From contig JAHQJS010000004.1 of assembly GCA_019057385.1 (NCBI GenBank), positions 480,001 through 544,000 of the forward strand: a DNA stretch of 64,000 nucleotides, written 5' to 3'. Below, one piece after another: positions 25,783 to 58,985 of the stretch. The position numbers and the translations under genes were made by a program. The stretch comes from Candidatus Borrarchaeum weybense (GTDB lineage Archaea > Asgardarchaeota > Sifarchaeia > Borrarchaeales > Borrarchaeaceae). Numbering within the stretch: the stretch's first letter is position 1; every line of letters begins with the position of its first letter. Under the pieces are notes generated by a model, which worked only from the letters and a program-made list of their open reading frames with translations, was not told the origin of the DNA and did no database searches.

Positions 25783-27921
25783 ATGTCTTTTAAGGAAGTC
25801 GATGAGAAGGAAAGCGAAGAAGAGGAAGAAGAAGAGGAAGAAGAACTTGAAAAACGAAGAGCACCACCAAAACCTGTGACAAAGGAATATGTTCCAAAGG
25901 TTAAGGAAGGAACACTTTTATTCGAAGTGCCACGAGGGAGAGTAGTTGCTGATCTTAAAGAAGAAGACCTTGAACTTATTGCCGAGAAAGATGTAACCCC
26001 AGCTTGGAAAAAGGCTGGCGAATCAAATGAAAAAAGAGTTCTAGTGATCAACTCTGAGACCGCGAGTGCTGTATTTAAGGCAGATGGCACGGTTGAAAAA
26101 ACAGAAGCAACAGGTCTTATAGGTTTTTACAATCCGAACAAGAAAAATAGAGTTTGGGATATCGATAGCTATTGGGAAAACCTTGCCAAGACCAATTTAG
26201 CCGCTAGAGACGGCTTATGCCACATTGATGTCTATGAACTTGAACCTGGTGAATTTCGTGCTAAATCGTACGCTTTAAAGGAAGTAGAACCTTTACTAAC
26301 GCTTAACGTATCCGTAAACACAACCCCTGGAAAGGAAAAGGGACCTAATGTCCTAATAAAAGATAAAGAAACTGTTGCCGAAGTAACGGTTACAGCTACC
26401 AATGTATCAAAAACAAAGTTAGAAAATATAACAGTCGAAAAAGACTTGGGTGGATTTGGAAGCGCGAGTGATGCAAAAGCCAAGGCAGGCACCACCAAAC
26501 TAGAAGACAAAAAAGTTGTGTGGTCAGGGTTAAGTTTAGATCCTAATGGCGCTCAATCAATGACCTTTAAAGTTCCAATGAGTGCAAAAACGATAGATCC
26601 TCTAAAACTAGGTGATATCACTGCCAGCTATGTAGCGCCCGATATGACGATATCAGGTATTGCATTTATGGGATCGGATGGTTACACCAAAAACGTGACC
26701 TGGATCGATAAGGATGAGATGGATATGAGTCCCGGTCGCTGGAACTGTGCGGTCGAGTTCGAAAACCTGTCCACCTTTGAAGTCTTGCTTCGTGAAGTGG
26801 AGGTCTATCGCCAGACAGCCGAAGAACACATCTTCAAGAAACGCTCGGATAAACGGCAACAACTGATAGTTGACGAGGAGCGCCTTGACATAACGCTTAG
26901 CCCGGATACTGAGAATAAATGGACCAAAAGCTTTGTGTTCCCGGATCCAAAAGAAGAACCGATTATGAAACTGCCCAGTTTTGGTCAAAAAGTTGATTTC
27001 TCAGTCAAAAGCATGTTTCTGAGGGAACTCACTGGCTCTGTAGTACAATACGGTGGTGTAGTTACCATCGCAGATATGGAAGTAGAAAAGGCGTATAGAC
27101 TAAAGGAAGTTAGCGCTGCCGAAAAAAAGGCGAATGTAACAACATTAAAGGCATGCAATACTGGTTCAGCACCATTAGATGACTTAACTTTCAATGAAAC
27201 GATCCCTCCCGGCTTTGATGTTGACCCAGGTACTGTAAAAGCATATATTGTTCGACCAGGTGCAGATAAAGTAGATATTACAAGATCAATAAGGACTACG
27301 CCCCCAAGAGAGAAAGATCTTAAGAAGGAAAGAAAATTAACCATTTTACTTGAGAACGTCAATAAAGCAGACGCAATCCGTGCAATCAAGCCAAAAGAGT
27401 GCATTGAGATAAACTATGATCTTCAACCAATGTCTCCTGAGCCCGGCAAAGAATTTACTTCAAAAGTTGATGTAATAGGTAATGTTTTGGTACCGTTTCC
27501 AGCAGGAGAAGAACTACGTGCTAGTGCAGAAGATAAGATTGGCGTAAAGCCATATGTCTGGCGTAAGGTACGTGTTGGAAAATCTATCCAAGAAGGTGCG
27601 ACCAAAGGCGAATATGCAATTGCGATATACTACAAGAATAAAATGAAGCCTGGGGAACTTGCACTAGTGACTGATGATGAGGCAAGCTTGCCCGATATTA
27701 GTGTCAAGGATATCCTGCCTGAAGGCTTTAAATTGGTATCAAGTACTCCAGCAGTTACCGATCAAAAACCGAGGCTAATTGAAGGTAAAAGCTTTACTGT
27801 CTTAGAATGGGCCATTCAAGATATCCGACCCGATCAAATGGTGGAGATTAAATATTTCATTAAAGGCGAGCCTGGGGCTGTATATAAAGCCAAAGAAGCA
27901 CAAGCGCTTCTTACTGCGTAA
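25783..27921 (+). CDS. Large beta-sandwich protein with mu-homology-domain (adaptin/delta-COP)-like and DUF11-like segments
   Basis: 712 aa, acidic N-terminus; VLVINSETASAVFKADGTVEKTEATGLI, KVVWSGLSL and ITASYVAPDMTISGI resemble MHD strands. CDS is secure; family call is tentative. Confidence 0.7.
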   Translation: MSFKEVDEKESEEEEEEEEEELEKRRAPPKPVTKEYVPKVKEGTLLFEVPRGRVVADLKEEDLELIAEKDVTPAWKKAGESNEKRVLVINSETASAVFKADGTVEKTEATGLIGFYNPNKKNRVWDIDSYWENLAKTNLAARDGLCHIDVYELEPGEFRAKSYALKEVEPLLTLNVSVNTTPGKEKGPNVLIKDKETVAEVTVTATNVSKTKLENITVEKDLGGFGSASDAKAKAGTTKLEDKKVVWSGLSLDPNGAQSMTFKVPMSAKTIDPLKLGDITASYVAPDMTISGIAFMGSDGYTKNVTWIDKDEMDMSPGRWNCAVEFENLSTFEVLLREVEVYRQTAEEHIFKKRSDKRQQLIVDEERLDITLSPDTENKWTKSFVFPDPKEEPIMKLPSFGQKVDFSVKSMFLRELTGSVVQYGGVVTIADMEVEKAYRLKEVSAAEKKANVTTLKACNTGSAPLDDLTFNETIPPGFDVDPGTVKAYIVRPGADKVDITRSIRTTPPREKDLKKERKLTILLENVNKADAIRAIKPKECIEINYDLQPMSPEPGKEFTSKVDVIGNVLVPFPAGEELRASAEDKIGVKPYVWRKVRVGKSIQEGATKGEYAIAIYYKNKMKPGELALVTDDEASLPDISVKDILPEGFKLVSSTPAVTDQKPRLIEGKSFTVLEWAIQDIRPDQMVEIKYFIKGEPGAVYKAKEAQALLTA

Positions 27922-42270: not shown

Positions 42271-43026
42271 ATGCAGAAGCATCATAAGACGGCGAAATCA
42301 ATGGAAAAAACTAAAAATAAAAAGTTAGCCAAAAAAAAGTCACTTTTTATTATGATACCTGCTTATAACGAAGAAAATTCGATCGCTGAAGTCATTCATA
42401 GAGCTAATAATATTAAAATAAACAATGTTGAAATTATCACTCTTGTCATAAATGATGGCTCTAAAGATAACACTGAACGTTTAGCAGCAGAATCAGGAGC
42501 AGATTTAATTGTGTCACATAAAGTTAATAGAGGTCTAGGGGCAGCAATACGGACTGGTGTCGAAAAATCATTAGAAAACGGGGCTGATATGGCTGTTATG
42601 TTAGATGCTGACGGTGAGTATACACCAGAAGAAATTCCAGCATTAATTAAATTGATTTTACGCAATGAAGCTGACTATGTGTTAGGATCACGATTTATGG
42701 GATCAATACTTAAAATGAAAGTCCAAAGACGACTTGGAAACCTGTTTTTGACGGCACTTCTTATGTTATTTACGGGGCGACGAATTTCAGATGGACAAAC
42801 TGGTCTACGGGCATTTAGTAAACGTGCTCTACAAAATTTGGAGATTGTGCACGATTATAATTATGCACAAGTACTTACAATCGATTTACTAAGAAAAGGA
42901 TATCGACTCAAGGAAATTCCGATTTCCTATTCTTTCAGAAAAACAGGAAAAAGCTTTGTACGCTTTAAATCATATGCGTTGAAAGTTTTTCCAGCAATGA
43001 TTAAAGCACGACTCCGGCGTTTGTGA
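42271..43026 (+). CDS. GT2 glycosyltransferase (DPM1-like)
   Basis: IPAYNEE, INDGSKD, LDADGEY, GSRF, DGQTGLRA. Confidence 0.92.
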   Translation: MQKHHKTAKSMEKTKNKKLAKKKSLFIMIPAYNEENSIAEVIHRANNIKINNVEIITLVINDGSKDNTERLAAESGADLIVSHKVNRGLGAAIRTGVEKSLENGADMAVMLDADGEYTPEEIPALIKLILRNEADYVLGSRFMGSILKMKVQRRLGNLFLTALLMLFTGRRISDGQTGLRAFSKRALQNLEIVHDYNYAQVLTIDLLRKGYRLKEIPISYSFRKTGKSFVRFKSYALKVFPAMIKARLRRL

Positions 43027-43198
43027 CTTTTTTCGTCCTCATACCTGTCATCCATTCCCGTCGTAGAAGGCGTCAGACCTCTCGGGTTCAGTCTCATGCA
43101 CAAGAACGTGTTCTCCGCGTGTTGCGAGGAACATTCCGTCTTGTAGTTGGCATATTGTCCAGCAACTATGAAAAGTAAAAGTATTATGCAGATCATTT
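43026..43198 (-). ncRNA. Putative RAMP-associated structured RNA, copy A
   Basis: Homologous to 44131-44302 in conserved blocks with compensatory stem changes; begins ~24 nt after the HD gene stop. Confidence 0.65.
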
Positions 43199-43221
43199 TT
43201 TAAGCTCCATGTTAAATACTT

Positions 43222-43761
43222 CTAAAAGCCTCCTAAGTCATCTATGTAGAGATTAACCATTAAGAGTAAGTGATTTTTTAATGATGAAAAACCGAATTTG
43301 AGTGCTTCATTGATCCGATTAAGTGTTTGAGACTTATAGATATAGGAATAGAGGGCATAAAGAGAGTATTGGCGTGTTTCGATCTCTTTTTTTAGGGTAT
43401 CAAAATGAATTTTTGTTGTTTCAGTTACGCGGTAACGTGAAGGAGCGGAGAACCTGAATTTTCGTGAGATGCTGGAGGAAAATCTATCGTAGTATTGTAG
43501 GGTGGAAAGTAAAGGTAACTCTCTGTAATCTAATTCGTAATTATGATGATTCTTAACCAATTGATAGATATAGTCATCGGAGATTTTGACCTCTGTATAG
43601 ATTTTACTTGGATGTCTTTCAGTATTGACGAAATCGTGGAGAAGCATGGCGATCATCAGTTTTTGCATTGCATCTGAGAAGTTTGTTGGAAGCATTTTTC
43701 TGATCTTGATTTTTTTTGGAGAATAGAGGGGTTTCTTTTGAAGTTTTTCATTTCCTGCCAT
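43222..43761 (-). CDS. HD-nuclease domain (C-terminal half of a frameshifted Cas5-HD fusion)
   Basis: AMLLHDF, VKNHH, YYDRFSS: HD...HH...D pattern. Confidence 0.75.
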   Translation of the reverse strand: MAGNEKLQKKPLYSPKKIKIRKMLPTNFSDAMQKLMIAMLLHDFVNTERHPSKIYTEVKISDDYIYQLVKNHHNYELDYRELPLLSTLQYYDRFSSSISRKFRFSAPSRYRVTETTKIHFDTLKKEIETRQYSLYALYSYIYKSQTLNRINEALKFGFSSLKNHLLLMVNLYIDDLGGF

Positions 43762-44033
43762 TGTATTTGCCCCATGCCTTCATGGGTGTATCTTCCGATG
43801 CTATCTAGGGCAAGTGCTTCATCAAGTTTATATTCTGGAGCGATGACTTCAATATTGCCATACCAAGCCCTAAAAGTCATAGGTGCTCGTCTTTCACCCT
43901 TTGTAAGTTTGCCAAACACTCGTGGGCGTCCTTGAATGGTGACGATACCGATGTTTTTGAGTCCAAACCGATTTCTCTTAGCGACTACAGGTGTTTTAGT
44001 TATCCCCAGTAATTTAATCCAGTTTTTTGTCAT
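43656..44033 (-). CDS. Small Cas5-like RAMP domain (N-terminal half of the fusion)
   Basis: N-terminal ITKTP strand and glycine loop IGRYTHEGMGQI; overlaps the HD ORF in the -1 frame. Confidence 0.6.
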   Translation of the reverse strand: MTKNWIKLLGITKTPVVAKRNRFGLKNIGIVTIQGRPRVFGKLTKGERRAPMTFRAWYGNIEVIAPEYKLDEALALDSIGRYTHEGMGQIQWQEMKNFKRNPSILQKKSRSEKCFQQTSQMQCKN

Positions 44034-44130
44034 CGTTATTCCTCTTTATGAATAGTATCCCGTTATTAACATTTTAACGGGATATCTAAACGTATCGGTT
44101 TTTTTACCTTTTCTTCGTAAATTGGATATC

Positions 44131-44302
44131 ACTTTTATCGTCCCTTGGCTGTCATCCATCCCCATCAATACTAGAGGCGTGGGACCTCTTAGATGGTTCA
44201 GTCTCATACGCAAGAACGTGCTCCTCACAATGTGAGAGAAGCATACCGTCATGGATGAGAAAAAAGAAGAGTAGAAGAATATTGCAGAGTCTTCGATCAT
44301 TT
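44131..44302 (-). ncRNA. Putative RAMP-associated structured RNA, copy B
   Basis: Homologous to 43026-43198; begins ~9 nt after the Cas7-like stop. Confidence 0.65.
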
Positions 44303-44310
44303 ATCTCCCT

Positions 44311-45096
44311 TCAAGCGTCTAATGCGTCTAAAATTGTCCTCCAATCCTCAATTTCATCAAATTCAATTGATTCCGCTTCGATTTCTTCATTGACCTTATA
44401 GATACCATTGTTTCTTTTTACGGTCTTGATAACTTCAATTTTTAGAAGATCAAAGTCCAAAAGTTTAACCTGTCCATAGCCTGCGTTCTTACCGCCTCCA
44501 AGCGTTTCGATGTATAGCAATGACTCCATGAGGAATTTAATCTCTTCTTTAGTCAGAAGAGTTACATCAATAGAGAATGTGAAATAGCCACTGAAATAAC
44601 TTTCACGAAAATCTTGGATAGGTATACCCTCATAACTTAACGCTATCCTATTTTCGCTCAAGATATGAACTCTTTGCACCGCTACATCAGTATTATATTC
44701 TTTATGAGAGATAGAAGTAATAGGATCAGCATAGACAGAAATCCGGGATTCTTCGCGAAAACTACCAAAGATTCTTCGGAGAATACAGGGAGTATCACAC
44801 GCACCAAATGGATGAAACCCGTTAGGAATGAGTTTAGTGCCGTCTTTGAGTTCGGTTTTTTCACTGGTATGACAGACTTCGATACCACAATCTTGAGCCA
44901 GCGACATGGCGGCATGTCTTAGCATGCCACGCAAACCTTTGATATAATATACTTTGGTATTGAAGGTCTTTTCTCCATTTATATAAGGAATTTCACCGAG
45001 AAGCAACATGGTAGAATTTTTCTGTATGGAGGCATTCAGGGGTTTGGCAATAGGGGTAAAGGCTCGAACCACAAGTTGTTTTTTTGTTTTTTTCAT
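44311..45096 (-). CDS. Cas7/Csm3-like RAMP protein
   Basis: KGLRGMLRH, Cys/His cluster VCH...H...CDTPC, RIFGS, ENRI, glycine loop LGGGKNAGYGQV. Confidence 0.85.
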   Translation of the reverse strand: MKKTKKQLVVRAFTPIAKPLNASIQKNSTMLLLGEIPYINGEKTFNTKVYYIKGLRGMLRHAAMSLAQDCGIEVCHTSEKTELKDGTKLIPNGFHPFGACDTPCILRRIFGSFREESRISVYADPITSISHKEYNTDVAVQRVHILSENRIALSYEGIPIQDFRESYFSGYFTFSIDVTLLTKEEIKFLMESLLYIETLGGGKNAGYGQVKLLDFDLLKIEVIKTVKRNNGIYKVNEEIEAESIEFDEIEDWRTILDALDA

Positions 45097-45652
45097 CTTT
45101 CTAACCTCGTTTAAATCTCAATAATAACTTTTGCAACTAGATATATAAACCTATCGCTTTTTCTACCTTTTTTTAGTAAAATGGATGATTTTATACGCTT
45201 CTTTTTGAAAATAAAGCGTTTTAAAGACGTTTTTTTGTATATTACTGGAAACATACGAAAAACCTTTGTTAATTTAGGTAAAACCTTTTTTGTATTAATA
45301 ATGTCTTAAGTAAAAAGGAAAAATATTTGCAAAAATGGAGATATTCTGGAAGAATAAAAAGTGCAATAAGAATGGTCTATACTTGTTAAGTGTCATCAAT
45401 TGTGCTTGAAATTATTTATGCTTTATTTTAAAATTTCTTATAATCGCGCATTAGGTCGCTCAAAAACACCTTTCTCCCCCACTCATAGTACTTGGGGCGT
45501 TCTGTGTTACTATTGCAGGGTTCAAATCGTGTGCATCGGCTGTCCTTTAGCGCAACTGGCATATATGCAGTCTTACATCCAATTACATTTCCAGTCTGAC
45601 AAGTTCTCTTGAAGAAGCCGTGTCTTTTATAGGGAGGACACTTACTTTTCTC

Positions 45653-48600
45653 TTAAGAACTACCTAGGAGTTTTCGGCGTTTCATAACTAAATTCACTAG
45701 ACCTGGTACGAAATCTTCATTTATTTGGACTATTGAGCCAAGTGATGTGTCCTTTTCTCGAAAAATACCTGCAGAGCAGATTCTTGCCCATGCATTACGA
45801 TTCTCCTTATACGGACGAAGCTTGGCCGAGAAAATCTCTTTGTTGGGAATATTCCCCTGAATATCAATAAACTCTTCCAAGACATCATATAGCACTTCTT
45901 TAATAGGGCCACGGATTCCTCCCCGGCCAAAAATGGTTAATTCATCGGGAATATCGCTTGAACCTGCAATTAGCAATGCCAATTTCTCTGAATCGGATAC
46001 TTCAGGAATTTTATCGAATCTAAACTGCCAATCTGCGAATATCCTCATTATATAAGGCTTTTTTGCCAATTTTAATTGTGTTTCTGACATCTTCGAGGAA
46101 TCTAAGCCATATTTCAAAGCGGCGGTCTTTAACTCATCGTTTGTAAACTCATTTAAAATTAAACTTGCTTTATCAATTATTGAATTCGAAGGCTTTCCTC
46201 GGAAAATATAGCTGTTTAAATCATGCTTTACACGATTAATATATTCATTAGCGCTCCAGTCAGCGGTTCTACAAGATATAATAGTAGGTACCCCTTCGGT
46301 GGCAAGACGCATTACAGTGTCTTTTAGCAGAGGTAAGATGAATTCTGGTCTTTCCACTTCATCTATGCCATCAATTATAACAAGTAGATTTGCATTTTTT
46401 TCCTTTAATGTGCTAAACATCTGTTTCAATACATTAAATGCATCGAGCATGACAATAGATCCAAAAAACGCTTGTACAGTCTTGGTTACGTTCTTTCTAG
46501 CGCTGAAAAAAAGAGGAACAATTTGTCCTTTAACGGTGATAGTTTTCATGAGTTCATTTGCCTTATGTGCAAGAAGCCATGTCTTCCCGATGCCCATGTC
46601 CGAAAGTAAAAGGAAAATTTTACGCTCCTCGCCGATTGGTAGTGTAGCAATTTCAATAAATTCATCAATTGCCTTTTCGGCATCAACGCGAGGTTCATAT
46701 TTTTCATCACTATAGGCGATTTCGAATAAACTCGAAAATGAAACTGTGTTGAGAAAACATTTTGATAGAAAAATAATATTTTCGGTGTTTAGATCCTTAG
46801 ATATATTTTTAGATAGTATACTAACTACACGATCAAGATTTTTTTCAAGATTCTTGATATTTGTACGTACATCATCTAATCGTCTCTTAGTATCTTCTGT
46901 ATTCGATTCCAATAGATTTATAATGACATTAATACTTTCTTCGAGTTCTTGCTTTACATCTAAAGAAATATTACTTATTTCATCTTCCATCCATGCTCTT
47001 AGTGTTTCAATTGCTTCGAAAGGTTTTTTTGAAGCGAAATCAATTGCTTTATTGAATCCATTTATGATCGGACGAAGAGAAGTATCGATAATCAATTTTA
47101 GTTTGTCCTCATCAATGTTAGCATTTATTTCCTCAAGTTTCTTATTTATTAGATCTTCGATTCCTCTGAAGGATGCTTTCTTCATTGCTTCCTCAATATT
47201 TTCGGTAATCGATGTTTCATCAACCTTGATACCAAAAGAAGAAATTTTATTCGATATCAACTTTCCTATATACCCTGCAGCCGGAGGACAAACCATGCCA
47301 ACGAGCATAGAACCCACAGCAGGCAAACATTTGAGGCCTATCTCGCCAAGTGTTTTTCCTGCCTTCTTAAGTATATCTCTTATCTTCTTGAGACGTCCTT
47401 CATCTTTTTCAGGTTGATAACTCTCTGAAATCGCATCAGAATCAACTTCTTGATCGTTTGTCAGAATAGGAGGCGTAATTGGAGTTTGTGGTTGAGTTGT
47501 TCGAGTTTCTATTTCTTTTTGTTCTTCAACAATTATTTTCTTAGTTTTTTCAATTTCCTCCATTTCTATTGTCTCTGTTTGCTCTAGCGTTTCACTTGTA
47601 AGAAGCGCTTGTGCCTCTTTTGCTTTGTAGATGGCCCCTGGTTCACCTTTTATTGTGTATTTGATCTCTACCATTCGATCTGGTTGGATATTCTTGATGG
47701 ACCATTCTAAGACGGTGAAGCTCTTGCCTTCGACCAGTCTCGGTCGTTGATCAGTCAGCTCTGGCGAACTTGAAACCAGTATAAAGCCTTCAGGCAAGAT
47801 ATCGGCGATGGTGATGTCCTGAAGGGTAACTTCGTCATCAGGCTTCAGTTTATTATGATAGTAGATAGTAATAGCATATTCACCTTCTGTATCACCTTCT
47901 TGGATCGATTTTCCAACACGAGCTTTACGCCAAACATGCTCCTTTACAGTAAGTTTATCTTCTGCAATGGCACGAAGTTCTTCATGTTCGGAAAATGGTT
48001 CTAAAACATTACCTACTACTGAAACTGGTACAACAAGTTCGACTCCAGGTTCCGGTTCTACTGCTTGAAGGAGGTAATCTATTTTAACACAATCCTTTGG
48101 ATTAATAGCTTTAATTGCAACCAGTTTATTAATATTTGAGAGGGATAAAATCAATTTTCTTTCCTTTGATAAATCTCTCCCCCCTTTCTCAGTAATTTTT
48201 ACTGCTCCAGTAATATCTTGTTGATAATCTGATTCTCGTATAAGACTTGCTTTGATAGAGTCGATATTAAAACCTGGAGGGATCGTTTCATAAAAAGTAA
48301 GATCATTTAAAGGTGCAGAACCAGTATTACATGCCTTTAAGGTAGTCTTAATAGGATTTTCTTCGATTGCGTTAATTCTTTTTACTTCATATGATTTTTC
48401 TACTTTTATATCTGCTACTTTAACTAAACCACCATATTGTACTACAGAGCCAGTGAGTTCTCTCAGAAAATTGTTTTTAACTGAAAAGTCAACTTTTTGT
48501 CCAAAGCTAGGAAATTCCATAATTGGATCTTCTTTTGGATCAGGGAACACGAAAGTCTTGGTCCATTTATTCTCGGTGTCAGGACTAAGAGTTACGTAAA

Positions 48601-49666
48601 GGCTATCCTCACTGATTACTAAATGTTCTCGTCGATCTGATCTTTTTCTAAATATAGTTTCTTCGGCAGTCTGTCGATAGACTTCCACTTCGCGGAGCAT
48701 TATTTCAAACGTGGAAAGGTTTTCAAATTCAATCGCACAGTTCCAGCGACCCGGGACGTTGTCAATCTCATCTTTATCGATCCAAGTAACATTTTTGGTG
48801 TAGCCTTCTAGACCAAGAAAAATAATATCTGACATCGTTGTATCTGGTGTTGCGAAACTTATAGAAATTTTGCCTGTATTTAGTGGGACTACTGTTTCTG
48901 CTTTTAAAAAAACTCCAAATGTTATTGATTTTGATTCATTAGGAGCTAAACTAAATCCAGACCAAAAGATCTTGTCAGTCTCTCTTTTATAATCTCCATC
49001 TGCTCCCTTTAAGTCCATAACTTCCCTGAAAGCTTCAGGCAATTCTTTAACAAAAATAATGTTTTCTAAATTCGTTTTTGATTTATTAATAACCATAATC
49101 GTAACTCTGACCGCAGTTTCTTTATTTCTTATTAGTATTTTTGGCATAGTCTCTGATTCTGGTTCAGTATCTATGTATTCCTCAATTATCAGAGGTGATT
49201 CAATATCTTTTGAAACAGGAGTTCTCAAAGAATAATTTTTAAAGAATAATTCGCTGGGTCTAAGTTCTTGGATGTTTATATTGCACAGACCCTCCCTAGC
49301 TGATAAATTGGTCTTTGAAATATTTTCCCAGTAACTATCGAGATTCCAAACGCTATCTCGTTCGTTTGGATTGTAAAAACCAACACTTCCTGATGTTTTA
49401 ATAGTTTCTGTTCCATCTGCTTGAAAAACAGCATCTATTCTTTCAGAGTTGATAACAAGAATTCGTTTATTATTTTTAGCGCCAACTATTTTCCAGGCTT
49501 TAGGTATATCTTTCTCAGGCATATGTTCCAAGTCTAGTTTTTTAAGATCGACAACTACCCTTCCCTTTGGTATCTCGAATAAAATTGGACCTTCAAGTAT
49601 TTTTGGAACATAATTTGCCATTTCGGCATTTCCTCTTCTATTTTTCCTGACTATTTGTTTAGACAA
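45653..49666 (-). CDS. Full paralog of the 25783-27921 protein fused to a helical/coiled-coil region and a STAND/NACHT-like NTPase
   Basis: First ~690 aa align with 25783-27921 through KAKEAQALLT; then SDMGIGKT, LVIIDGIDE, IISCR. Confidence 0.8.
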   Translation of the reverse strand: MSKQIVRKNRRGNAEMANYVPKILEGPILFEIPKGRVVVDLKKLDLEHMPEKDIPKAWKIVGAKNNKRILVINSERIDAVFQADGTETIKTSGSVGFYNPNERDSVWNLDSYWENISKTNLSAREGLCNINIQELRPSELFFKNYSLRTPVSKDIESPLIIEEYIDTEPESETMPKILIRNKETAVRVTIMVINKSKTNLENIIFVKELPEAFREVMDLKGADGDYKRETDKIFWSGFSLAPNESKSITFGVFLKAETVVPLNTGKISISFATPDTTMSDIIFLGLEGYTKNVTWIDKDEIDNVPGRWNCAIEFENLSTFEIMLREVEVYRQTAEETIFRKRSDRREHLVISEDSLYVTLSPDTENKWTKTFVFPDPKEDPIMEFPSFGQKVDFSVKNNFLRELTGSVVQYGGLVKVADIKVEKSYEVKRINAIEENPIKTTLKACNTGSAPLNDLTFYETIPPGFNIDSIKASLIRESDYQQDITGAVKITEKGGRDLSKERKLILSLSNINKLVAIKAINPKDCVKIDYLLQAVEPEPGVELVVPVSVVGNVLEPFSEHEELRAIAEDKLTVKEHVWRKARVGKSIQEGDTEGEYAITIYYHNKLKPDDEVTLQDITIADILPEGFILVSSSPELTDQRPRLVEGKSFTVLEWSIKNIQPDRMVEIKYTIKGEPGAIYKAKEAQALLTSETLEQTETIEMEEIEKTKKIIVEEQKEIETRTTQPQTPITPPILTNDQEVDSDAISESYQPEKDEGRLKKIRDILKKAGKTLGEIGLKCLPAVGSMLVGMVCPPAAGYIGKLISNKISSFGIKVDETSITENIEEAMKKASFRGIEDLINKKLEEINANIDEDKLKLIIDTSLRPIINGFNKAIDFASKKPFEAIETLRAWMEDEISNISLDVKQELEESINVIINLLESNTEDTKRRLDDVRTNIKNLEKNLDRVVSILSKNISKDLNTENIIFLSKCFLNTVSFSSLFEIAYSDEKYEPRVDAEKAIDEFIEIATLPIGEERKIFLLLSDMGIGKTWLLAHKANELMKTITVKGQIVPLFFSARKNVTKTVQAFFGSIVMLDAFNVLKQMFSTLKEKNANLLVIIDGIDEVERPEFILPLLKDTVMRLATEGVPTIISCRTADWSANEYINRVKHDLNSYIFRGKPSNSIIDKASLILNEFTNDELKTAALKYGLDSSKMSETQLKLAKKPYIMRIFADWQFRFDKIPEVSDSEKLALLIAGSSDIPDELTIFGRGGIRGPIKEVLYDVLEEFIDIQGNIPNKEIFSAKLRPYKENRNAWARICSAGIFREKDTSLGSIVQINEDFVPGLVNLVMKRRKLLGSS

Positions 49667-49739
49667 CTAAATAAATTTACTTATAAAAAACACAAAAAAA
49701 GAATTAATTCACTAAACCGATAAGGAAATCTTAACTAAA

Positions 49740-51473
49740 TCACTCAACAATTCTAGATTTCCTAAGAAATCCAATTAAAACTCCTCCTATGATGAAACAA
49801 GCGAGTAACAGAAAAAGGACCAGGTACACAGCGAACTGTGGTGGAACAACATAAAACAGATACAGAAGGAATCCACAACTGAATAATCCGTTAATTATGC
49901 CAGTCTTCAATCCTGCATTTTTTAAGTTCAAGGATGTTTTCCTAAGACTAATAAATCCACTCAGCACTCCTGCAATGAGGAAACAAGAAATAATTCGAAC
50001 GATTTGTAAAATTATCTCAGAAGGCATAGGAATAACAAATAAAATGACTACTAATATCACAATTCCTGATATCCCACCGTTAACCATGTCTGTGGTTGAT
50101 GGTCGTTGAATGCTGAGATCGGGATAGTCTTTTAAATCCTCTCCAATGAGAAATTTCAAACGATCCATTACCATCCATTTAGAGGTTACAAAATCAAAAT
50201 AAATTCCAATGGCAGCAATAATCGAAGCAATTAAAAGGAAGTGTGGCAATAAATCTACCCCAAAGTAAACAATGAATAATCTTGATGAAAGATAAGTTAC
50301 TAAAAGAACGCCGAGACCCAATACAATAGGATGGAATATTCTCTGTAAACGAGAGTATTTTCTGAAGAAATCCAGATCTTTATTTTTTACAGCCCAATCT
50401 TGCTTGACATGAATATAAGAAAGTGATGGAACGGCGCCTACAAGGAATGCCACGGTAAGAATAATTGCTCTTAAGACAAACAAGACATCGTGAGAAGGAA
50501 TATTACTTGGCATTTGTTGTGTTAAAAAGTCTAAAAAGGGCACAACCATCGGCTGTAGCATCGCTAATATAAAAGCAACAAGATATGGGAGAAATATTAT
50601 AAAACAGCGATTCCAGTTCTCCCACTCATTACGAATTCCAAGGAAAGCGATCATGAAAGGAATGATTATTAGAATCATAAAAAGAAGTTGAGAGCTCTCA
50701 AAATAATTTAGAAATCGAAGATTCATCCCAACAATAATAGCATTGGCGACTAACGAAACTACTAACCAACTAGTCTGAATCGTTTGGTCGCTTTTTAGCC
50801 AATTTCTCCAAAAATGCTTTTCAATTTGTCCTTTGTAGCGCATTGTGTCTTTCAATGCACCAATAAAAGCCCTTGGTGTCTCGATAGTTCCTAGTAGAAC
50901 TAAGAAATTGAATACAGAGAGAAAAAGTATCACTGCGGAGAATATTTTATCCCCTCCAATGGCAAGCCATACCGTTATCAAAATGAAGGTGTCAAAAGCC
51001 CGCTCGTACGAATAATACTCCTTATATTCTAGAAAATCAAGTTTTCTTTTAAAATATGTTGAATATAGTTTAGTTGCACCCAACCATCCCATGAACCCCA
51101 TAAACATTAATCCAAAAGAGAAAATAGCCGGGAGAAACTCATTATTTAGCGCATGTATTAACAACCTTTCGGAAGCATTCGCAAAGATACTTGTAGAGAA
51201 AAACACAAATCCGCAAATTACGGAAATAAGTAGTCGTGATCTCAACTCTTCATTTCGAAGTACATCTTCTGGATTCTTCTCGAAAACCATTTTTGGAAGA
51301 TGAAATTGGTAAATACCTATTGTCAAAATAAGACTTGCAAGTAGAAAGGTATATTCAAAGTTGAATAGACTTAAAACGACAGATAAAACACTTAGCAGGA
51401 TAGTTATAAGCGAAACAAGAAGATTCTTAATATTCAGTTCTTTTGTTTTACTCTTAGAATCAATACTCCCCAT
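49740..51473 (-). CDS. Multi-pass membrane protein, unknown function
   Basis: 577 aa with many hydrophobic segments. Confidence 0.75.
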   Translation of the reverse strand: MGSIDSKSKTKELNIKNLLVSLITILLSVLSVVLSLFNFEYTFLLASLILTIGIYQFHLPKMVFEKNPEDVLRNEELRSRLLISVICGFVFFSTSIFANASERLLIHALNNEFLPAIFSFGLMFMGFMGWLGATKLYSTYFKRKLDFLEYKEYYSYERAFDTFILITVWLAIGGDKIFSAVILFLSVFNFLVLLGTIETPRAFIGALKDTMRYKGQIEKHFWRNWLKSDQTIQTSWLVVSLVANAIIVGMNLRFLNYFESSQLLFMILIIIPFMIAFLGIRNEWENWNRCFIIFLPYLVAFILAMLQPMVVPFLDFLTQQMPSNIPSHDVLFVLRAIILTVAFLVGAVPSLSYIHVKQDWAVKNKDLDFFRKYSRLQRIFHPIVLGLGVLLVTYLSSRLFIVYFGVDLLPHFLLIASIIAAIGIYFDFVTSKWMVMDRLKFLIGEDLKDYPDLSIQRPSTTDMVNGGISGIVILVVILFVIPMPSEIILQIVRIISCFLIAGVLSGFISLRKTSLNLKNAGLKTGIINGLFSCGFLLYLFYVVPPQFAVYLVLFLLLACFIIGGVLIGFLRKSRIVE

Positions 51474-52307
51474 CCCGTAATCTCCATTTGAAATATTTTT
51501 CTTAAGTTAGCTTCCACTGCGTTGTTGTTGGAACAATATTCAAGAAAAATGTTGCTGTTACCAAAAAGTAACTAACAAATATAACGGAATATCTAATAAT
51601 ATCCTTAATCTCTAATTCTTCCAAGATAATCCCCCGTTTACGAAAGATTAGGACGTCTTTATGTTTACATATATAAAATCATTCTGCTTGTTATAATTTT
51701 CGTGAAACAGCGTTTTATTAAATAGTAGAGTTCACGAAACTAATTACAAAACATCCTATGATTAAAATATTGGATCTTTTTATGATATGAAGAGGATCTC
51801 AGGAAAATAATCAGAGAACTCATGGTAGGAATTTATAAAAAAGGATAGATTTGAGTTTTAAAACAGGACTGATAGTAAAGTTATTTGTACTAATTTCACT
51901 CCAGTTCTCTTATCAATTCATTATGTTGGTGGTATGTCCCTTATATCTTCGATTTTCCAAGTTGCGTAGTTAAAAGCGAAGAGTAATGTTAGGAAACTAC
52001 TGATTGTAAATCCGAAACAAAGTCCAAGAAAAGCAGAACTTATGTCTAAACTAAGTGTAAAGGCATAAGCGAGAACAATCGAAATAATTGAGAAAGAGAA
52101 GAAGAACGTTATTAGTATAATCATCATACTAATAACTCTACTCATGCTTCGAATTTGGCTCCGTTCACGATCTCTACCCTGCTTTTCATAATTTCTCTCA
52201 AAAACTTCTCGAACGTCGTATGCATTTTTTAGAAGGAAAGTAGCAAAAATGCCTCCAATACCGAATAAAGAATCAACTAAACAAAAGGTATTCTACAGTT
52301 GAGATAA

Positions 52308-53252
52308 ATGAGTTTACGAAAAGATATTTACCCTAATGCTAAGCAAAGAGATTTAGATCGTATCCTCCCTCAGTTAGTAACTGAGATTCTCAGAGCCTTT
52401 CAGTCTTGTTTTACATCAGAACAAGACCTCATACAGTTCATCAATAGACTTCCGAGCAGAGAAATTGTAGAACTCTTTCTTGATTCGGGAAGGTTTTATG
52501 CCGTCAGTAAAAGTGTCATCACAGAGCCCTTTGTGAAGTTAATAATGATCTTTTCGATGATTGAGCGATTAACTTCAGCAGAAATACCATATACTGAATT
52601 TAAAAATTGGATACGTGAGAATGAAGTGCTCAGAGCAGCAGTTGAAGAAAATCCTGACATATCAGACTTCCATCTTTCATCTCTCAAGCAACTCATAGAT
52701 AGTCTAAGAGAGAAATATAATGAGATCTACGGCTTCGTAAGAAACATACTCTCATATTTCACGGAATATATTGCTCTTAGACATCAGATAATGATCATCG
52801 CCTCAATACATGTGAAAGACACAGAGATTTTAAGAAGATATCCTGATCAGGTAACTGGGGTACAGCCATATTCTGTGACTATTTCAGATTTTGCCACTGA
52901 ACATAATCTTGAAACATCAAAGGGATATATGCCTGTTTGCTATGACTGGAGACAATGCTGTGTAGATGTTAATACATGCTGTTGGCGTTCCAAAAAAACG
53001 TGCAGATTGTGGATAGATGACGAAGAGCGCATCAAGAGGCTTAAAACAACAATAAAGTTATTGTATGACTTTAGAAGTGTATTTGTTCATCGTGCAGAAC
53101 TGCCACCTTTTAGTGAACATCCAACATTTGGAATGTATAAACATAATAAGAAATGGAGAGATTGCCTTATTCTGTTAAAGTCATCAGAATTTGAAGCAAT
53201 CTTTGAGGAATCATTTGTCGAATATTTTAAAAGCAAGATCGACCTCGAATAA
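52308..53252 (+). CDS. ApeA-like HEPN domain protein
   Basis: LIMIFSMIERL and LYDFRSVFVH (Rx4H). Confidence 0.6.
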   Translation: MSLRKDIYPNAKQRDLDRILPQLVTEILRAFQSCFTSEQDLIQFINRLPSREIVELFLDSGRFYAVSKSVITEPFVKLIMIFSMIERLTSAEIPYTEFKNWIRENEVLRAAVEENPDISDFHLSSLKQLIDSLREKYNEIYGFVRNILSYFTEYIALRHQIMIIASIHVKDTEILRRYPDQVTGVQPYSVTISDFATEHNLETSKGYMPVCYDWRQCCVDVNTCCWRSKKTCRLWIDDEERIKRLKTTIKLLYDFRSVFVHRAELPPFSEHPTFGMYKHNKKWRDCLILLKSSEFEAIFEESFVEYFKSKIDLE

Positions 53253-53269
53253 ACCGAAGTTGAATTAGA

Positions 53270-54427
53270 ATGTCACAAATTATTATGTCTCAGCCTAGAA
53301 ATCCAGTAACAGCAACTTATGTGATTTTGGGATCTGCGATAGCCTATGTCATTTTCTGGAACTTCTCACAGGATATAGTGTCCAAACTATTGATCATTTC
53401 TGTGATCGGTGGTATGATCACATCATCACTTTACTTCTTAGAACCAATCCAGTTCGTAGATAATCGCTATCTTAGAAACAAGTATGAAAAAACCATTCTT
53501 CGAGACTTCAAAGAATATACTGAGGTCACATTTGAAAACACCTTTAAAGAACCGTATTTCGATGCCGACAGGAATAATATTTATGGATCGCTTTATCTTT
53601 CTTTGGCGATCTGCGTAGGCGCTGTAGGTACGATATTCATAAATCCCTCTGTTCCCATTTGGATTCCAGTAATTTCACTTTTTATCACATTAACATTGTT
53701 AATTAACGGCATCTACTTGATTACGCTAAGGACAGAAAAAATAGAATTGGTTCACTACATACTCTCCTTAGAGAGATACACCTTAATGGAGAAAAGTGAT
53801 ATAGGCTATCCTTACGCTCCTATAGAGAAAATCAAGATTGAACTTGCTTCACGGAGGTGGGTATCTGCACGCAACATCCTTAAGCAACACACTGAAACCG
53901 TATATGCTAGATTAAGAAACATTCGTTCCAAATTACAAGGGAATAAATGGAGATGGCAAAATACCAAAATCACAGTTGAAGAAATAAAGAAAGGATTTGG
54001 GAGTAACTCTCCTTTTGAAGATGAAGTTAAGTCATATTTGAGTAATGCCAAATTAGGCAGGACATGGCTTTTTCTCCTTGATTTAGATCTCCGTGAGTTT
54101 TCTAAGAAACTTGATGAATTGGCTAGTTTCTTACAAGCAAAAAAAATGGATCTTGTATCGATCTTACATTCTAAAACTATAATCAAAATTATGGAAAGCA
54201 AGAAAAAAGATCTATCATATTTCTATAGTGATGAGACGTTTAGCCCAGATAAGGAGGTCAATTACAGAAATCTCCAGGAAAGTTTAACGGGCGATGATAT
54301 TCCGTCTCTTATTGAGGTTAAAGAAGCCATTATAGCAATTAAAGGACTTAAACCGACTTTTGATGAAATAATTCAGAAGATTGAGGCAGTAGAAGATGTT
54401 CATTTAACAGTTAAAAAAAATGATTGA
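53270..54427 (+). CDS. Protein with 4 N-terminal TMs and a helical C-terminus
   Basis: 385-aa ORF directly after the HEPN gene. Confidence 0.7.
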   Translation: MSQIIMSQPRNPVTATYVILGSAIAYVIFWNFSQDIVSKLLIISVIGGMITSSLYFLEPIQFVDNRYLRNKYEKTILRDFKEYTEVTFENTFKEPYFDADRNNIYGSLYLSLAICVGAVGTIFINPSVPIWIPVISLFITLTLLINGIYLITLRTEKIELVHYILSLERYTLMEKSDIGYPYAPIEKIKIELASRRWVSARNILKQHTETVYARLRNIRSKLQGNKWRWQNTKITVEEIKKGFGSNSPFEDEVKSYLSNAKLGRTWLFLLDLDLREFSKKLDELASFLQAKKMDLVSILHSKTIIKIMESKKKDLSYFYSDETFSPDKEVNYRNLQESLTGDDIPSLIEVKEAIIAIKGLKPTFDEIIQKIEAVEDVHLTVKKND

Positions 54428-54571
54428 ATTAAGGTTCACCAATTTGTGCATAATTCGTAACATTATCATAGAAAAAGATAAATTTAATATGGTGAAACAT
54501 TTCCTATTTCACAATCACAACTTATTCTTAGCGGGTTATTAGCAAGAGGTCATTTTTGGAGTAGATATGTC

Positions 54572-55618: not shown

Positions 55619-56093
55619 AGTTACTCATTGAAATCGCCACTGGGGCGATTTAGGGTAGAGTAACTAACTTTATGATCATCTCGCTGCATAGACTTGTACA
55701 ATTTAGTTTGTCATCTAATTCCGAACATTCTGTAAACTTCATTATTAAATCTCCTCTATCTTTACAACATTGGCATAAAGACGTCGCTTAATAGCATCTT
55801 CTGTACAGCCTTACAGGTCAGCGTTTTTGAGATTGCACATTTTTCTTCTTCATTGCGGAATAAACAATGAAGTTCCAAAACAATATTCCATGTCTTTTTT
55901 TGTAAAACGTTCATCTCCTGAAGTATTCTAATGAGCAGGCTAATTTCACGTCATTCTTCCTTGTATTTGTCATAAACACCTTTAGCTTTGTCTAAATTGC
56001 TATATTCGTATTTTTCGAAAACATCTAAATATAATAATCCTACGAATCTCTTCATGTCGTTTTCCTCCAAAAAATGTTTTAAACCGAAATGAG

Positions 56094-56128
56094 CGCCCCC
56101 GTCGGGATTCGAACCCGCAATCTGCCGC
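56094..56128 (-). pseudogene. 3' tRNA fragment (T-arm and acceptor strand), possible att-site relic
   Basis: Minus strand GCGGGTTCGAATCCCGACGGGGGCG; no 5' half visible. Confidence 0.6.
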
Positions 56129-56303
56129 AAGATAAATCGTCATCAAACGTTTCTTGGGCGATCAATCTTCAAAACGTTCTAGTGAAGCATCTATCATACA
56201 CAGTACGCAAGAAACAATCTCATTCTTGCAATATCGAAAATTTCTTTAGAACTCTGCCTAACTTGAGATTATGGGCGCATGTTTAAAAAAAAGAAATAGA
56301 GCG

Positions 56304-58442
56304 TTACGTATAGTATATTGGCTGCGTTATATCGTCGCTACTTACACATGGTTGTACATTCAACCTGTTTGCCATATTCACCGCGTCCTCTGGAGTGCCA
56401 TAATAGATATAAAATCCGTATATCGCCTCTGGACGTGCGTTGTCTTCTTTAAAGTAAATATTGTTGCTATCTAAAATAACTGATGTATATCTAGTTGTCT
56501 GAACGCTTATTAAACTAACATTGTTTCCTAGATAAATCCAGCCATTAGATAAAAATAATTGACATTCTTTCGCCATAAAATCGCGTAAATTGAATATTCG
56601 TCCATTTGACATTGGTGAATATGCTATGGCGTCATCTGTTACGTTGAAATATACCCTATTTGCAACGATGTCGGATGTATTTAACTCTAGTGTTACGTAA
56701 TATAATTTATCATTATATTTGGTAACGTCTAATGTATAATTCTTAAATGAACATGTAACGTTGATTGGTAGTTCTCCTGCTGTTCCCTCAGGCGTCGTCG
56801 GATTATAGTATAATGTATTTGTGCGTGTATCAATTACAACTGGTTGAGTAATATCTAACGATTGTAATAATGAATCTACAATCTTCTCCGATTCTGTAAT
56901 AACATAGTTGCTGTAATCTATCGAATATTCTACTTCACACTCTCTTGGAGTCCATCCTGTTGAATCGGATACCTCAGCAAGAAGTAGTATCTTCCATAAT
57001 TTATTTATATCTTCCTGTATCGATGTATTAACGCCAGAAATGTTTGACACGTACTTAAATGTCGCCTCAGCCGATAGTAATGATGTTCTGGCTTGATACC
57101 GTAATGTCATTATTTCGACATCTCGTTCATATCTATTGCGCTCTTCTCCCGACCATAAATAATTGCCGCCTTGAGTGACACATGGAATTTCTGGAATCTG
57201 TTTAACTGGTATATTTCTTTCTAAGCATACATCAACTAATTGCGAAATCGTTAAATATTGCGAATTGCGGCTATCGTAATCTCGTAATATATCTTCATAC
57301 CTATGTTGCTTCTCTTTGACGTATGTGAAATCGTTCTTATTTTGATATGTATTAACTTGCTCTCCATCGTCGTAATACAACCACTTATATCCGAACGGTT
57401 CCGTAGTGCTATTATCGTCTATTTTAACGTCCCTGTTGAAAATTATGTAGGAATCGTTATTTGATTGGCAAAGTCCGTAATGTTTAAATGTATCGTTTGC
57501 ATCTATATTATAATAATTATTATAAGTAGCCGTTATCATTACCAAAGTTGTATATCCATAATCTTTCATAATTTCTTTTAATGCGGGTGAATACTGCCAC
57601 TCCTGACAGCCAAATATAGGACTTCGCGTAAGATTATATTTTTTTAATATTTCATCTGATATTTCAATTGATTTCCTTAATTCTAATTCGGGGTACGCAA
57701 TAAAAAGTTGATCGGAATAATGCGTAACAACTAACTCCAACTGACCCCGATCATGTAGTTTTTTAAACAACTCGAAAACATCGGGGTATTTTTCAGCCAT
57801 GAGTTCTATACCTAAACTTTGTATTTCGAATGTGAACGCGTATTTGGGATATCTCTCATACATCAAAAGTAAGTTTCTGATAGATCCGTTAACGATACGT
57901 TCTTCTGATATAGGATCGCCCGCTCTAAACTGCGGGTTAAAATGAAAATATGATACATAAAATTCTGCCTTATTTAATGGTACAGAATGGGTAGATGTTG
58001 TATGTGCGATAATGCTTACTACTTTTTTATATACATTAGAAACGCCATATACCTCATAGTATAGCACATATATATTTTCGCCAGCGTTCTCAACAATTGT
58101 TTTGCGTGCAACCTCTGATTTACCCCAAGAAGTTAGTATAACTATCTGAGTATCTACAGGCTTTGGTGTTGCGTTTGATTCGTCAACAATTTTTAATGTT
58201 ACATGTTCTGGCTTATCTGATACAGAATGTAGTCTAATGTTTAATGTAATATCATCCCCAACTGTAACATAATCATCTACATCAGTTGTAAAATCGTCGA
58301 TGACTATTGAATTTGAGGTATTAACGCCAACCATTTTAAATGCTAACATTTGCGTAGTGAATACGCTAGAAAGGATTACAAACGCGAGAATGCACAGAGG
58401 AATAACCGTAGGCGGTATTATCCTATATGGCGCACAATGCAT
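56304..58442 (-). CDS. Secreted glycoside hydrolase family 57-like protein
   Basis: Signal-like N-terminus; YFHFNPQ, FTFEI, LELVVTHY, GCQEW, DDGE, AEVSD. Confidence 0.7.
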   Translation of the reverse strand: MHCAPYRIIPPTVIPLCILAFVILSSVFTTQMLAFKMVGVNTSNSIVIDDFTTDVDDYVTVGDDITLNIRLHSVSDKPEHVTLKIVDESNATPKPVDTQIVILTSWGKSEVARKTIVENAGENIYVLYYEVYGVSNVYKKVVSIIAHTTSTHSVPLNKAEFYVSYFHFNPQFRAGDPISEERIVNGSIRNLLLMYERYPKYAFTFEIQSLGIELMAEKYPDVFELFKKLHDRGQLELVVTHYSDQLFIAYPELELRKSIEISDEILKKYNLTRSPIFGCQEWQYSPALKEIMKDYGYTTLVMITATYNNYYNIDANDTFKHYGLCQSNNDSYIIFNRDVKIDDNSTTEPFGYKWLYYDDGEQVNTYQNKNDFTYVKEKQHRYEDILRDYDSRNSQYLTISQLVDVCLERNIPVKQIPEIPCVTQGGNYLWSGEERNRYERDVEIMTLRYQARTSLLSAEATFKYVSNISGVNTSIQEDINKLWKILLLAEVSDSTGWTPRECEVEYSIDYSNYVITESEKIVDSLLQSLDITQPVVIDTRTNTLYYNPTTPEGTAGELPINVTCSFKNYTLDVTKYNDKLYYVTLELNTSDIVANRVYFNVTDDAIAYSPMSNGRIFNLRDFMAKECQLFLSNGWIYLGNNVSLISVQTTRYTSVILDSNNIYFKEDNARPEAIYGFYIYYGTPEDAVNMANRLNVQPCVSSDDITQPIYYT

Positions 58443-58619
58443 TATTTTCCCTCATGTCATATGCAGTTCAGCAAGATAAATCCTTTTCGAATCTCTTGCA
58501 TTTCTTAAATACTGCGTGTTTTCTTGTTGTAGAACCTGTACCTGTCCAGTAAAAACAGACGTAAATAATAAATAAAGAAAAAATAAAGATGAAAATTTTA
58601 ATACATTATTTTGATATCT

Positions 58620-58709
58620 TGCGTCTTGTAATAATTGCTTGCCTTTATGTTGGGTGGTAGGCATGAGCGGTTGACCTCTCATGTTTACCACATAGATAGG
58701 TACTCTCAA
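58620..58709 (-). pseudogene. Truncated iscB/isrB (PLMP domain only)
   Basis: RVPIYVVNMRGQPLMPTTQHKGKQLLQD, then homology is lost. Confidence 0.85.
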
Positions 58710-58985
58710 ATCCTATCTCCTCCTTTAACCTGCGTTACAGGAGGTCGGTTCTCCTCGCCAAAGTTATCAGTCAGTACTCTACGATGATCACTGAGCGTTT
58801 CCTCTCTGTTTAAACCACCGTTTACAGAGCAAGGGACTAGAGAAGCATCCCTTGGTGTGTTCTTTAACTCTCCTGATAACGTAGATACCGTCATACACTA
58901 TATGACCTCTCTTAGGCTAATCAACTAATTGCTCTCAGGTCTCACGGAACAAGCCCCTACCCTTTAGGGTGGTGGGGTAATTGAC
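58710..58985 (-). ncRNA. omegaRNA (HEARO-like) with IS200/IS605 end
   Basis: GTCAATTACCCCACCACCCTAAAGGGTAGGGGCTTG start; GTTGATTAGCCTAAG, CTACGTTA, GATGCTTCTCTAGTC and TTTGGCGAGGAG blocks. Confidence 0.85.

Follow-up and report, generated by a model that had tools for sequence, protein, structure and literature searches.

We analysed a 64,000-nucleotide stretch of the genome of Candidatus Borrarchaeum weybense (NCBI GenBank assembly GCA_019057385.1, contig JAHQJS010000004.1, positions 480,001 to 544,000; hereafter the window, in whose numbering positions are given), in which two minus-strand genes for RAMP proteins are each followed by a copy of a structured RNA. The first gene (44311..45096) encodes a Cas7/Csm3-like RAMP of 261 residues that matched PF03787 (Pfam RAMPs) at 2.4e-8, and an 81%-identical paralogue of this protein was assigned to Csm3 by PADLOC at 5e-11. 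The second gene (43222..44033) probably encodes a Cas5(Cmr3)-like RAMP fused to an HD-like domain (hereafter Cas5-HD). RNA copy B lies 3' of the Cas7-like gene and RNA copy A lies 3' of the Cas5-HD gene.

The ARAMP module of the window

In the window, the loss of 1 nt from the A-run 43744-43748 (indel at 43743) splits the Cas5-HD gene into the open reading frames (ORFs) 43656-44033 and 43222-43761. The same frameshift was present in contigs of the likely source sample, and the extra base was found in a related strain (run X4) and in one X3 contig. A predicted model of the N-terminal ~105 residues (pLDDT 86) resembled a Cmr3/Cas5-like RAMP, with 19–25% identity to the Cmr3 chains 9l7c_C, 3x1l_B and 4h4k_A at weak Foldseek E-values of ~0.02–0.05; nearly all of its top Foldseek matches were CRISPR effector RAMP subunits, mostly of type III. 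The sequence profile of Cas5-HD gave no match among PDB chains. In the C-terminal half Pfam HD was detected at an E-value of 0.023, which is below the cut-off for acceptance, and H133/D134, H141, H163/H164 and D183 were invariant in 15 Cas5-HD homologues.

Together the two genes are the ARAMP module, a protein module that is already in print. ARAMP and the haloarchaeal HRAMP modules are said to have been described by Makarova et al. (2020) in CRISPR J. In the current CRISPR classification both are entered as array-less type III derivatives with an unknown mode of action. Published summaries (PMC8730458, PMC12669027) call ARAMP mechanistically enigmatic, most of its loci carrying a divergent Cas1. 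The window locus shares with those summaries a Cas7-like RAMP, the lack of an array, an Asgard host and, probably, a Cas5-like RAMP with a nuclease domain. It differs in having a NACHT protein in place of Cas1 and a structured RNA after each gene, no RNA being mentioned in the summaries.

The genome contains 11 paralogous modules with RAMPs 64–81% identical, approximately ten of which carry the RNA. The order RAMP, B-type RNA, Cas5-HD, A-type RNA was complete in seven modules and also held in the genomes G050 and G020. A helicase–Cas1 fusion of ~1330 residues (PF01867, 1e-7) lies upstream in six paralogous modules. The window locus has no Cas1 beside its RAMP genes and carries in that position an unrelated NACHT/STAND protein of 1337 residues with a DUF11 domain (45653..49666, minus strand). 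The first ~690 residues of this protein have two paralogues, 58–60% identical, which are separate 712-residue proteins (window 25783-27921, plus strand, and C4:884823).

Scaffold B is followed by a block reading ATCCAATTTACGAAGAAAAGG...TTTAGATATC and then by a 10-bp hairpin (44034..44125, minus strand). The ~60 nt past scaffold B are paralogous to a TATA-bearing block upstream of the RAMP gene (~45100-45190), which holds the box TTTATATA. Because of this paralogy each of the two genes appears to have a promoter-like block of its own, and 44034..44125 is likely to be the promoter region of the Cas5-HD gene. No CRISPR array was found at the window locus. A k-mer scan located the sole array of the genome ~370 kb away (C4:148600-152100), and its 37-nt repeat, ending in ATTGAAAG, was unrelated to the RNA scaffold. 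We also considered whether the RNA itself is a CRISPR repeat and rejected this: the unit is ~135 nt long, the copies stand ~1,100 nt apart with one gene between them, and there is no short repeat–spacer pattern.

A family of pseudoknotted RNAs

The initial annotation had described two diverged copies of a structured RNA on the minus strand. Both copies are real (A, ~43200-43017; B, ~44305-44119; 76% identity over ~170 nt), but they are not a lone pair, as BLAST and a covariance model identified ~25 copies of a core of ~125–135 nt in this 4.18-Mb genome of 37% G+C, whose owner stands close to Candidatus Borrarchaeum yapensis. Copy A, an 'A-type' scaffold (43017..43145, minus strand), matched the covariance model with 133 bits and was delimited by alignments, pair counts and junction comparison. 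Copy B, a 'B-type' scaffold (44119..44255, minus strand; model match 44114-44255, 130.7 bits), has its helix P4 lengthened to CCAUC/GAUGG.

Each of the five related genomes (Borrarchaeum-like or Sifarchaeum) that were searched with the covariance model contained the family, with at least 21 matches in G050, 3–9 in each of three other genomes of the same genus and at least 21 in G009, a member of a second family and probably Ca. Sifarchaeum subterraneum. None of 145 other Asgard genomes sampled gave a match. The exact core motif occurred in metagenome-assembled genomes (MAGs) of Borrarchaeia and of Sifarchaeum (many contigs) and in one 'Promethearchaeota' MAG; it was absent from IMG/VR viral contigs, and three matches in bacterial MAGs were taken as chance. 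No Rfam 15 family matched the RNA at the gathering score, and only chance-level rows appeared at E up to 10. The possibility raised earlier that the copies belong to a known family, such as the omegaRNA of TnpB, was therefore not borne out. A full-text literature search, in whose scope the primary ARAMP and HRAMP papers did not fall, found no paper describing such an RNA. Thus the protein module is known, and the RNA is absent from Rfam and from the searchable literature.

RNAalifold on 22 genomic copies recovered a P1 hairpin, a long-range stem P2 and an inner hairpin P5, plus a 3-bp P3. The hairpin, inner stem and long-range stem proposed in the initial annotation were in this way confirmed, and they held on 49 copies from six genomes. 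Read 5' to 3', the P1 hairpin (43133-43109 in copy A, minus strand) is followed by the stacked helices P2–P3–P4 (5' strand of P2, 43108-43102 in copy A), which close hairpin P5, and the loop of P5 pairs with the 3' tail. To count pairs, we used 49 model-aligned copies from the six genomes, with the 3' partners slid by 1–3 columns, and shuffles, as controls. The paired cells amounted to 91.5%, compared with 39–47% with slid partners, and 128 cells were changed on both sides, compared with 43.7±4.8 in shuffles. Compensatory changes occurred in 18 of the 32 pairs, and P1 was wholly re-coded in three subfamilies (UGUUCCUCGC/GCGGAGAACA, UGCUUCUCUCAC/GUGAGGAGCA and UACUACGGGU/ACCCGUGGUA). The earlier proposal of selection on RNA structure is upheld by these counts.

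The top pair of a mutual-information scan joined a base of the P5 loop to a base of the 3' tail, as part of a pseudoknot in which loop NAC pairs with tail GUN. Its variable pair, which is flanked by invariant A-U and C-G pairs, was C-G or G-C (21 copies each) or, in three copies, A-U. In copy A, the P5 loop at 43074-43072 pairs with the 3' tail at 43027-43025, and in copy B the pairing is between 44081-44079 and 44132-44130 (both on the minus strand). Because the pseudoknot reaches into the 3' tail, the 3' end of the fold is fixed. The loop (TCTGACG/TCCCACG), which had been put forward as a specificity segment, is structural. G-U pairs were frequent and formed on the gene strand only (for example, the pair of columns 43 and 120 was UG in 42 sequences), which favours an RNA of gene-strand polarity. 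The single-sequence folding energy was no better than that of shuffles (z=−0.71 and +0.38), and hence the support for the fold is covariation rather than thermodynamics. We regard a new family of ~135-nt pseudoknotted RNA, and its fold, as established.

A compact pseudoknot with invariant junction bases, in many copies and at the edge of mobile DNA, could also be a self-cleaving ribozyme that trims transcripts at the end of the element. We consider this most improbable, since no ribozyme family of Rfam 15 matched even at E up to 10 and, as we read the fold, its helices follow one another in a different order from those of the hammerhead or hepatitis delta virus (HDV) cores. A specific likeness to hammerhead or HDV was dropped on the same grounds, together with the misfit of the core bases.

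Each scaffold is overlapped by an ORF on the same strand. The ORF over copy A (42927..43196, 89 codons) starts at an ATG (43196) with a Shine–Dalgarno (SD)-like GGAG, encodes a hydrophobic leader (MICIILLLFIVAGQY...) and extends at its other end into the flank; the ORF over copy B (44046..44300, 84 codons) has an SD-like GGGAG and an ATG at 44300. The ATGATC that had been listed among the structural blocks is the start of these ORFs and lies outside the fold. The RNA might accordingly be a structured mRNA that encodes a small hydrophobic peptide, as part of a type I toxin-like or CreT-like addiction module in which the fold would control translation and which would stabilise the RAMP genes or the island. 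In the two window copies, as in many more, the SD-like motif and ATG lie 81–87 nt upstream of the anchor. An 18-codon leader (MLQIMIIIFIVAGKY...) is common to six genomes and varies most at third and least at second codon positions (entropy 1.01/0.79/1.26), a weak coding-type pattern. In the AT-rich genome an ORF in one frame spans the scaffold in 26 of 46 copies, and 24 gene-caller proteins among 5.8 billion were alike over their first ~58 residues.

Against such a peptide, what is conserved past the leader is the RNA. The peptide over P1 varies (ECSSHHAEN, VCFSHIVRS or EYYGYVTRG) while the P1 pairing holds, and the third positions of the ACGUUCUUGUGCAUGAGACUGAAC block (TFLCMRLN) never vary, which is not a coding pattern. 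Indels of 1 nt shift the frame in the 3' third with base identity kept (window copy B, whose frame past 'GMDD' is unlike that of other B-type copies, and C4:339436), stops occur in the leader or the P1 loop in intact modules of one lineage, and the tails past the scaffold are random and 10–60 residues long. CreTA RNA pairs and type I toxin mRNAs (hok-like) are likewise small structured RNAs in or beside cas-type operons or mobile DNA, and the present RNA resembles them in that its short hydrophobic ORF comes with an SD and an ATG. It differs from them in that neither an antisense nor a crRNA (CRISPR RNA)-like partner was detected, conservation does not extend to the stop codon and, over P1 and the 3' third, the fold rather than the peptide is conserved. 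A peptide-encoding mRNA is thus unlikely in our view. The protein-coding signature that the initial annotation had named as a possible refutation is found weakly in the leader and does not overturn the RNA, and a translated leader or a dual role remains a live rival. The leader also contains TTTATA, which could equally be an archaeal TATA box; among 38 A-type or solo copies, 19 have it 22–36 nt ahead of the base at which conservation begins.

A further alternative is that the RNA is a cis-acting 3'-untranslated-region element of the two RAMP mRNAs, which would process, stabilise or terminate them and have no function in trans. Each module copy begins 10–75 nt past a stop codon, and a promoter-like block directly follows scaffold B, as expected of such an element. 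However, solo copies far from any RAMP gene retain the fold (compensatory changes being seen in one Sifarchaeum subfamily), a TATA-like box of their own is present in half of the A-type or solo copies, and a 135-nt pseudoknotted fold with ~60 invariant bases exceeds what a terminator needs. We therefore judge a purely cis-acting role very unlikely.

The inserted island and the solo copies

In three related genomes the glycosyltransferase gene that corresponds to window 42271-43026 has an intact 3' end and no module follows it; their downstream sequence reappears at window ~54450. It follows that 43017..54448 is an insertion of 11.4 kb into the 3' end of this gene. The insertion was polymorphic in run X4, in which one short contig showed the empty site. 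The island sits in the last codons of the gene, which is of the GT2 type, and provides its stop codon; besides the RAMP module, it contains the NACHT/DUF11 protein, a 577-residue multi-pass membrane protein and two unknown genes. Neither Cas1 nor a recognisable integrase was found in it.

About 2 nt separate the conserved tail of copy A from the insertion junction (43016/43017). A metagenome contig (L106) carries this module, 98% identical, elsewhere and with an unchanged 3' end, and another metagenome contig (L108) has a solo copy that is 5'-truncated and again ends at the same 3' position. At three junctions the 3' end of the scaffold coincided with the edge of DNA that had been inserted or relocated. 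Solo copies retained 35–345 nt of the 3' end of Cas5-HD, so that the 5' truncation is variable and the 3' end fixed. The leader is common to the copies at these three sites (L106, L108 and the window), which does not agree with the initial suggestion that the stretch 5' of GACGG is a specificity segment. When window 42892-43798 was compared with a JGI contig (L107), the insertion site was the same and the flank and the 3' half of the scaffold were near-identical, but the leader differed and Cas5-HD was only ~79% identical; this pattern implies that recombination or conversion took place and that its breakpoint lay within the scaffold.

The other end of the window island was unique in the genome. 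Comparison of the window junctions with the three empty sites revealed neither a target duplication nor an inverted repeat, only a 6-nt CACAAA near both ends, and so gave no sign of the miniature inverted-repeat transposable element (MITE) considered in the initial annotation. The 3'-end rule is also not general, as in a second ARAMP/helicase–Cas1 island (L031; G000 C4:338850-349420) the junction lies ~490 nt beyond the RNA. This second island swaps the first ~110 nt of its host gene for a diverged copy, ~60–65% identical, and is a gene-end integration that restores its target.

It is conceivable, if doubtful, that the RNA is the cis-acting end of a mobile ARAMP/Cas1 element and each solo copy a non-autonomous derivative, the fold of the RNA, or of one of the DNA strands, being recognised by the mobilising machinery, whether helicase–Cas1 or another enzyme, and the copies spreading thereby. 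The dispersed copies (at least 20 per genome, many of them at contig ends), the position of copy A at the terminus of a polymorphic insertion, the relocated module of L106 with its fixed 3' end, the 5'-truncated solo copies and the six modules with a helicase–Cas1 fusion all favour it. On the other side stand the junctions of the window island, with no terminal inverted repeat or target-site duplication and a unique opposite end, and its lack of Cas1 or a recognisable integrase, as well as the ~490 nt beyond the RNA in L031. In addition, the internal B-type copy is at no boundary, and the strong G-U content favours an RNA over a DNA structure.

A related reading, in which the locus would represent a new class of RNA-guided mobile element built of class 1 parts with the scaffold at its 3' edge transcribed into the flank, is quite unlikely, although it fits the junction data. 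Flank read-through would then guide the Cas7/Cas5-HD nuclease to the unoccupied site, for homing or retention as with TnpB/IscB, with the helicase–Cas1 fusion acting as integrase and the solo scaffolds as non-autonomous riders. The closest parallels are the omegaRNA (HEARO) of IscB and the reRNA of TnpB (IS200/605), structured scaffolds of 100–250 nt found in many copies, including ORF-less ones. The present RNA is like them in that the scaffold stands at the very end of mobile DNA and the flank can continue the transcript. It differs in showing no sequence or model similarity to that RNA family, in having as proposed partners multi-subunit class 1 RAMPs rather than a single RuvC nuclease, and in the second, internal copy; moreover, no target for a guide was found.

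Two further observations were made in passing. A full-length HEARO (127.7 bits) lies at window 58744-58985 on the minus strand. No IscB-like ORF follows it, the next gene on that strand encoding a 712-residue GH57-like protein, and the 5' end of the HEARO adjoins the edge (~58977) of 55630-58976, a 3.3-kb segment missing from G020. On contig C192 of G009 (L070), a tyrosine recombinase gene (PF00589, 1.4e-40) precedes a solo RNA copy by ~470 nt.

A candidate RNA subunit of the ARAMP effector

The reading that we prefer, with a probability of approximately 0.45, makes these transcripts the RNA subunit of the Cas7/Cas5-HD effector of ARAMP. The reasons are the synteny with the two RAMP genes, the variants shared within modules, the RNA-binding ancestry of the RAMPs and the lack of an array. 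Regarding the variants, both RNAs of a module carried the same pseudoknot base and the same junction variant (ACAGG or ACUCG) in eight of nine modules. The window copies A and B differ in their pseudoknot variant, unlike the copies of the eight other modules. According to this model, the RNA would stand in for a crRNA as an unvarying scaffold to which the Cas5-like and Cas7-like RAMPs bind, specificity would come from the sequence that follows the scaffold on its 3' side (flank DNA for copy A), and the solo copies would be trans-acting or decayed derivatives.

In type III systems (Csm/Cmr), the partner proteins of the crRNA belong to the same superfamily, and a Cas5-family subunit binds its 8-nt 5' tag. 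The invariant GGGACGA(A/G/U)AAA of the RNA recalls the Staphylococcus epidermidis crRNA tag ACGAGAAC (PMC5389561), with the ACG of this block being paired in P2. The RNA differs from the type III crRNA in being a 135-nt folded unit rather than a 25–40-nt repeat between spacers.

Several observations weigh against an effector subunit. RNA copies exceed modules in the genome (25 compared with 11), many of them solo and far from RAMP genes. Three genomes (G009, G031 and G041; 69–80% complete) had RNA copies and no intact RAMP/Cas5-HD with the queries used, and at 18 Sifarchaeum core-motif loci neither an intact ARAMP gene nor any other recurrent neighbour was present beside the RNA. In ARAMP loci of other Asgard families we found no gap between the genes, no model match and no shared downstream element. 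The sharing of variants within modules could equally be gene conversion, given that recombination inside the scaffold was seen. The unremarkable single-sequence folding energies, the ORF that spans the scaffold and the codon-like leader described above count on the same side.

The search for a guide was likewise negative. BLAST of the leaders and 3' extensions against the genome detected no variable guide-like segment with a target and returned paralogous promoter blocks only; the 3' flank of B-type copies is such a conserved promoter block and not a variable guide. The 5' leader and 3' flank of the window copies, scored against the reconstructed empty site, reached only the 95th percentile of shuffles. 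When the leader was compared with its own 3' flank in 23 copies, a single high score was obtained, for window copy A (20 of 28 bases, 43144-43171 against 42973-43000, sharing TTGCTGGA). We treated this match as chance, as the same leader stands at two other sites with different flanks.

On the most modest reading, the present results add a new family of RNA, whose covariation is unusually clean, from the group of archaea most closely related to eukaryotes. A conserved pseudoknotted RNA after each RAMP gene is also a concrete candidate for the missing RNA component of ARAMP. Should its transcript also prove to extend into the DNA that flanks a mobile element, class 1 effectors and a Cas1 integrase would be connected with the omegaRNA logic known from nucleases that transposons encode.

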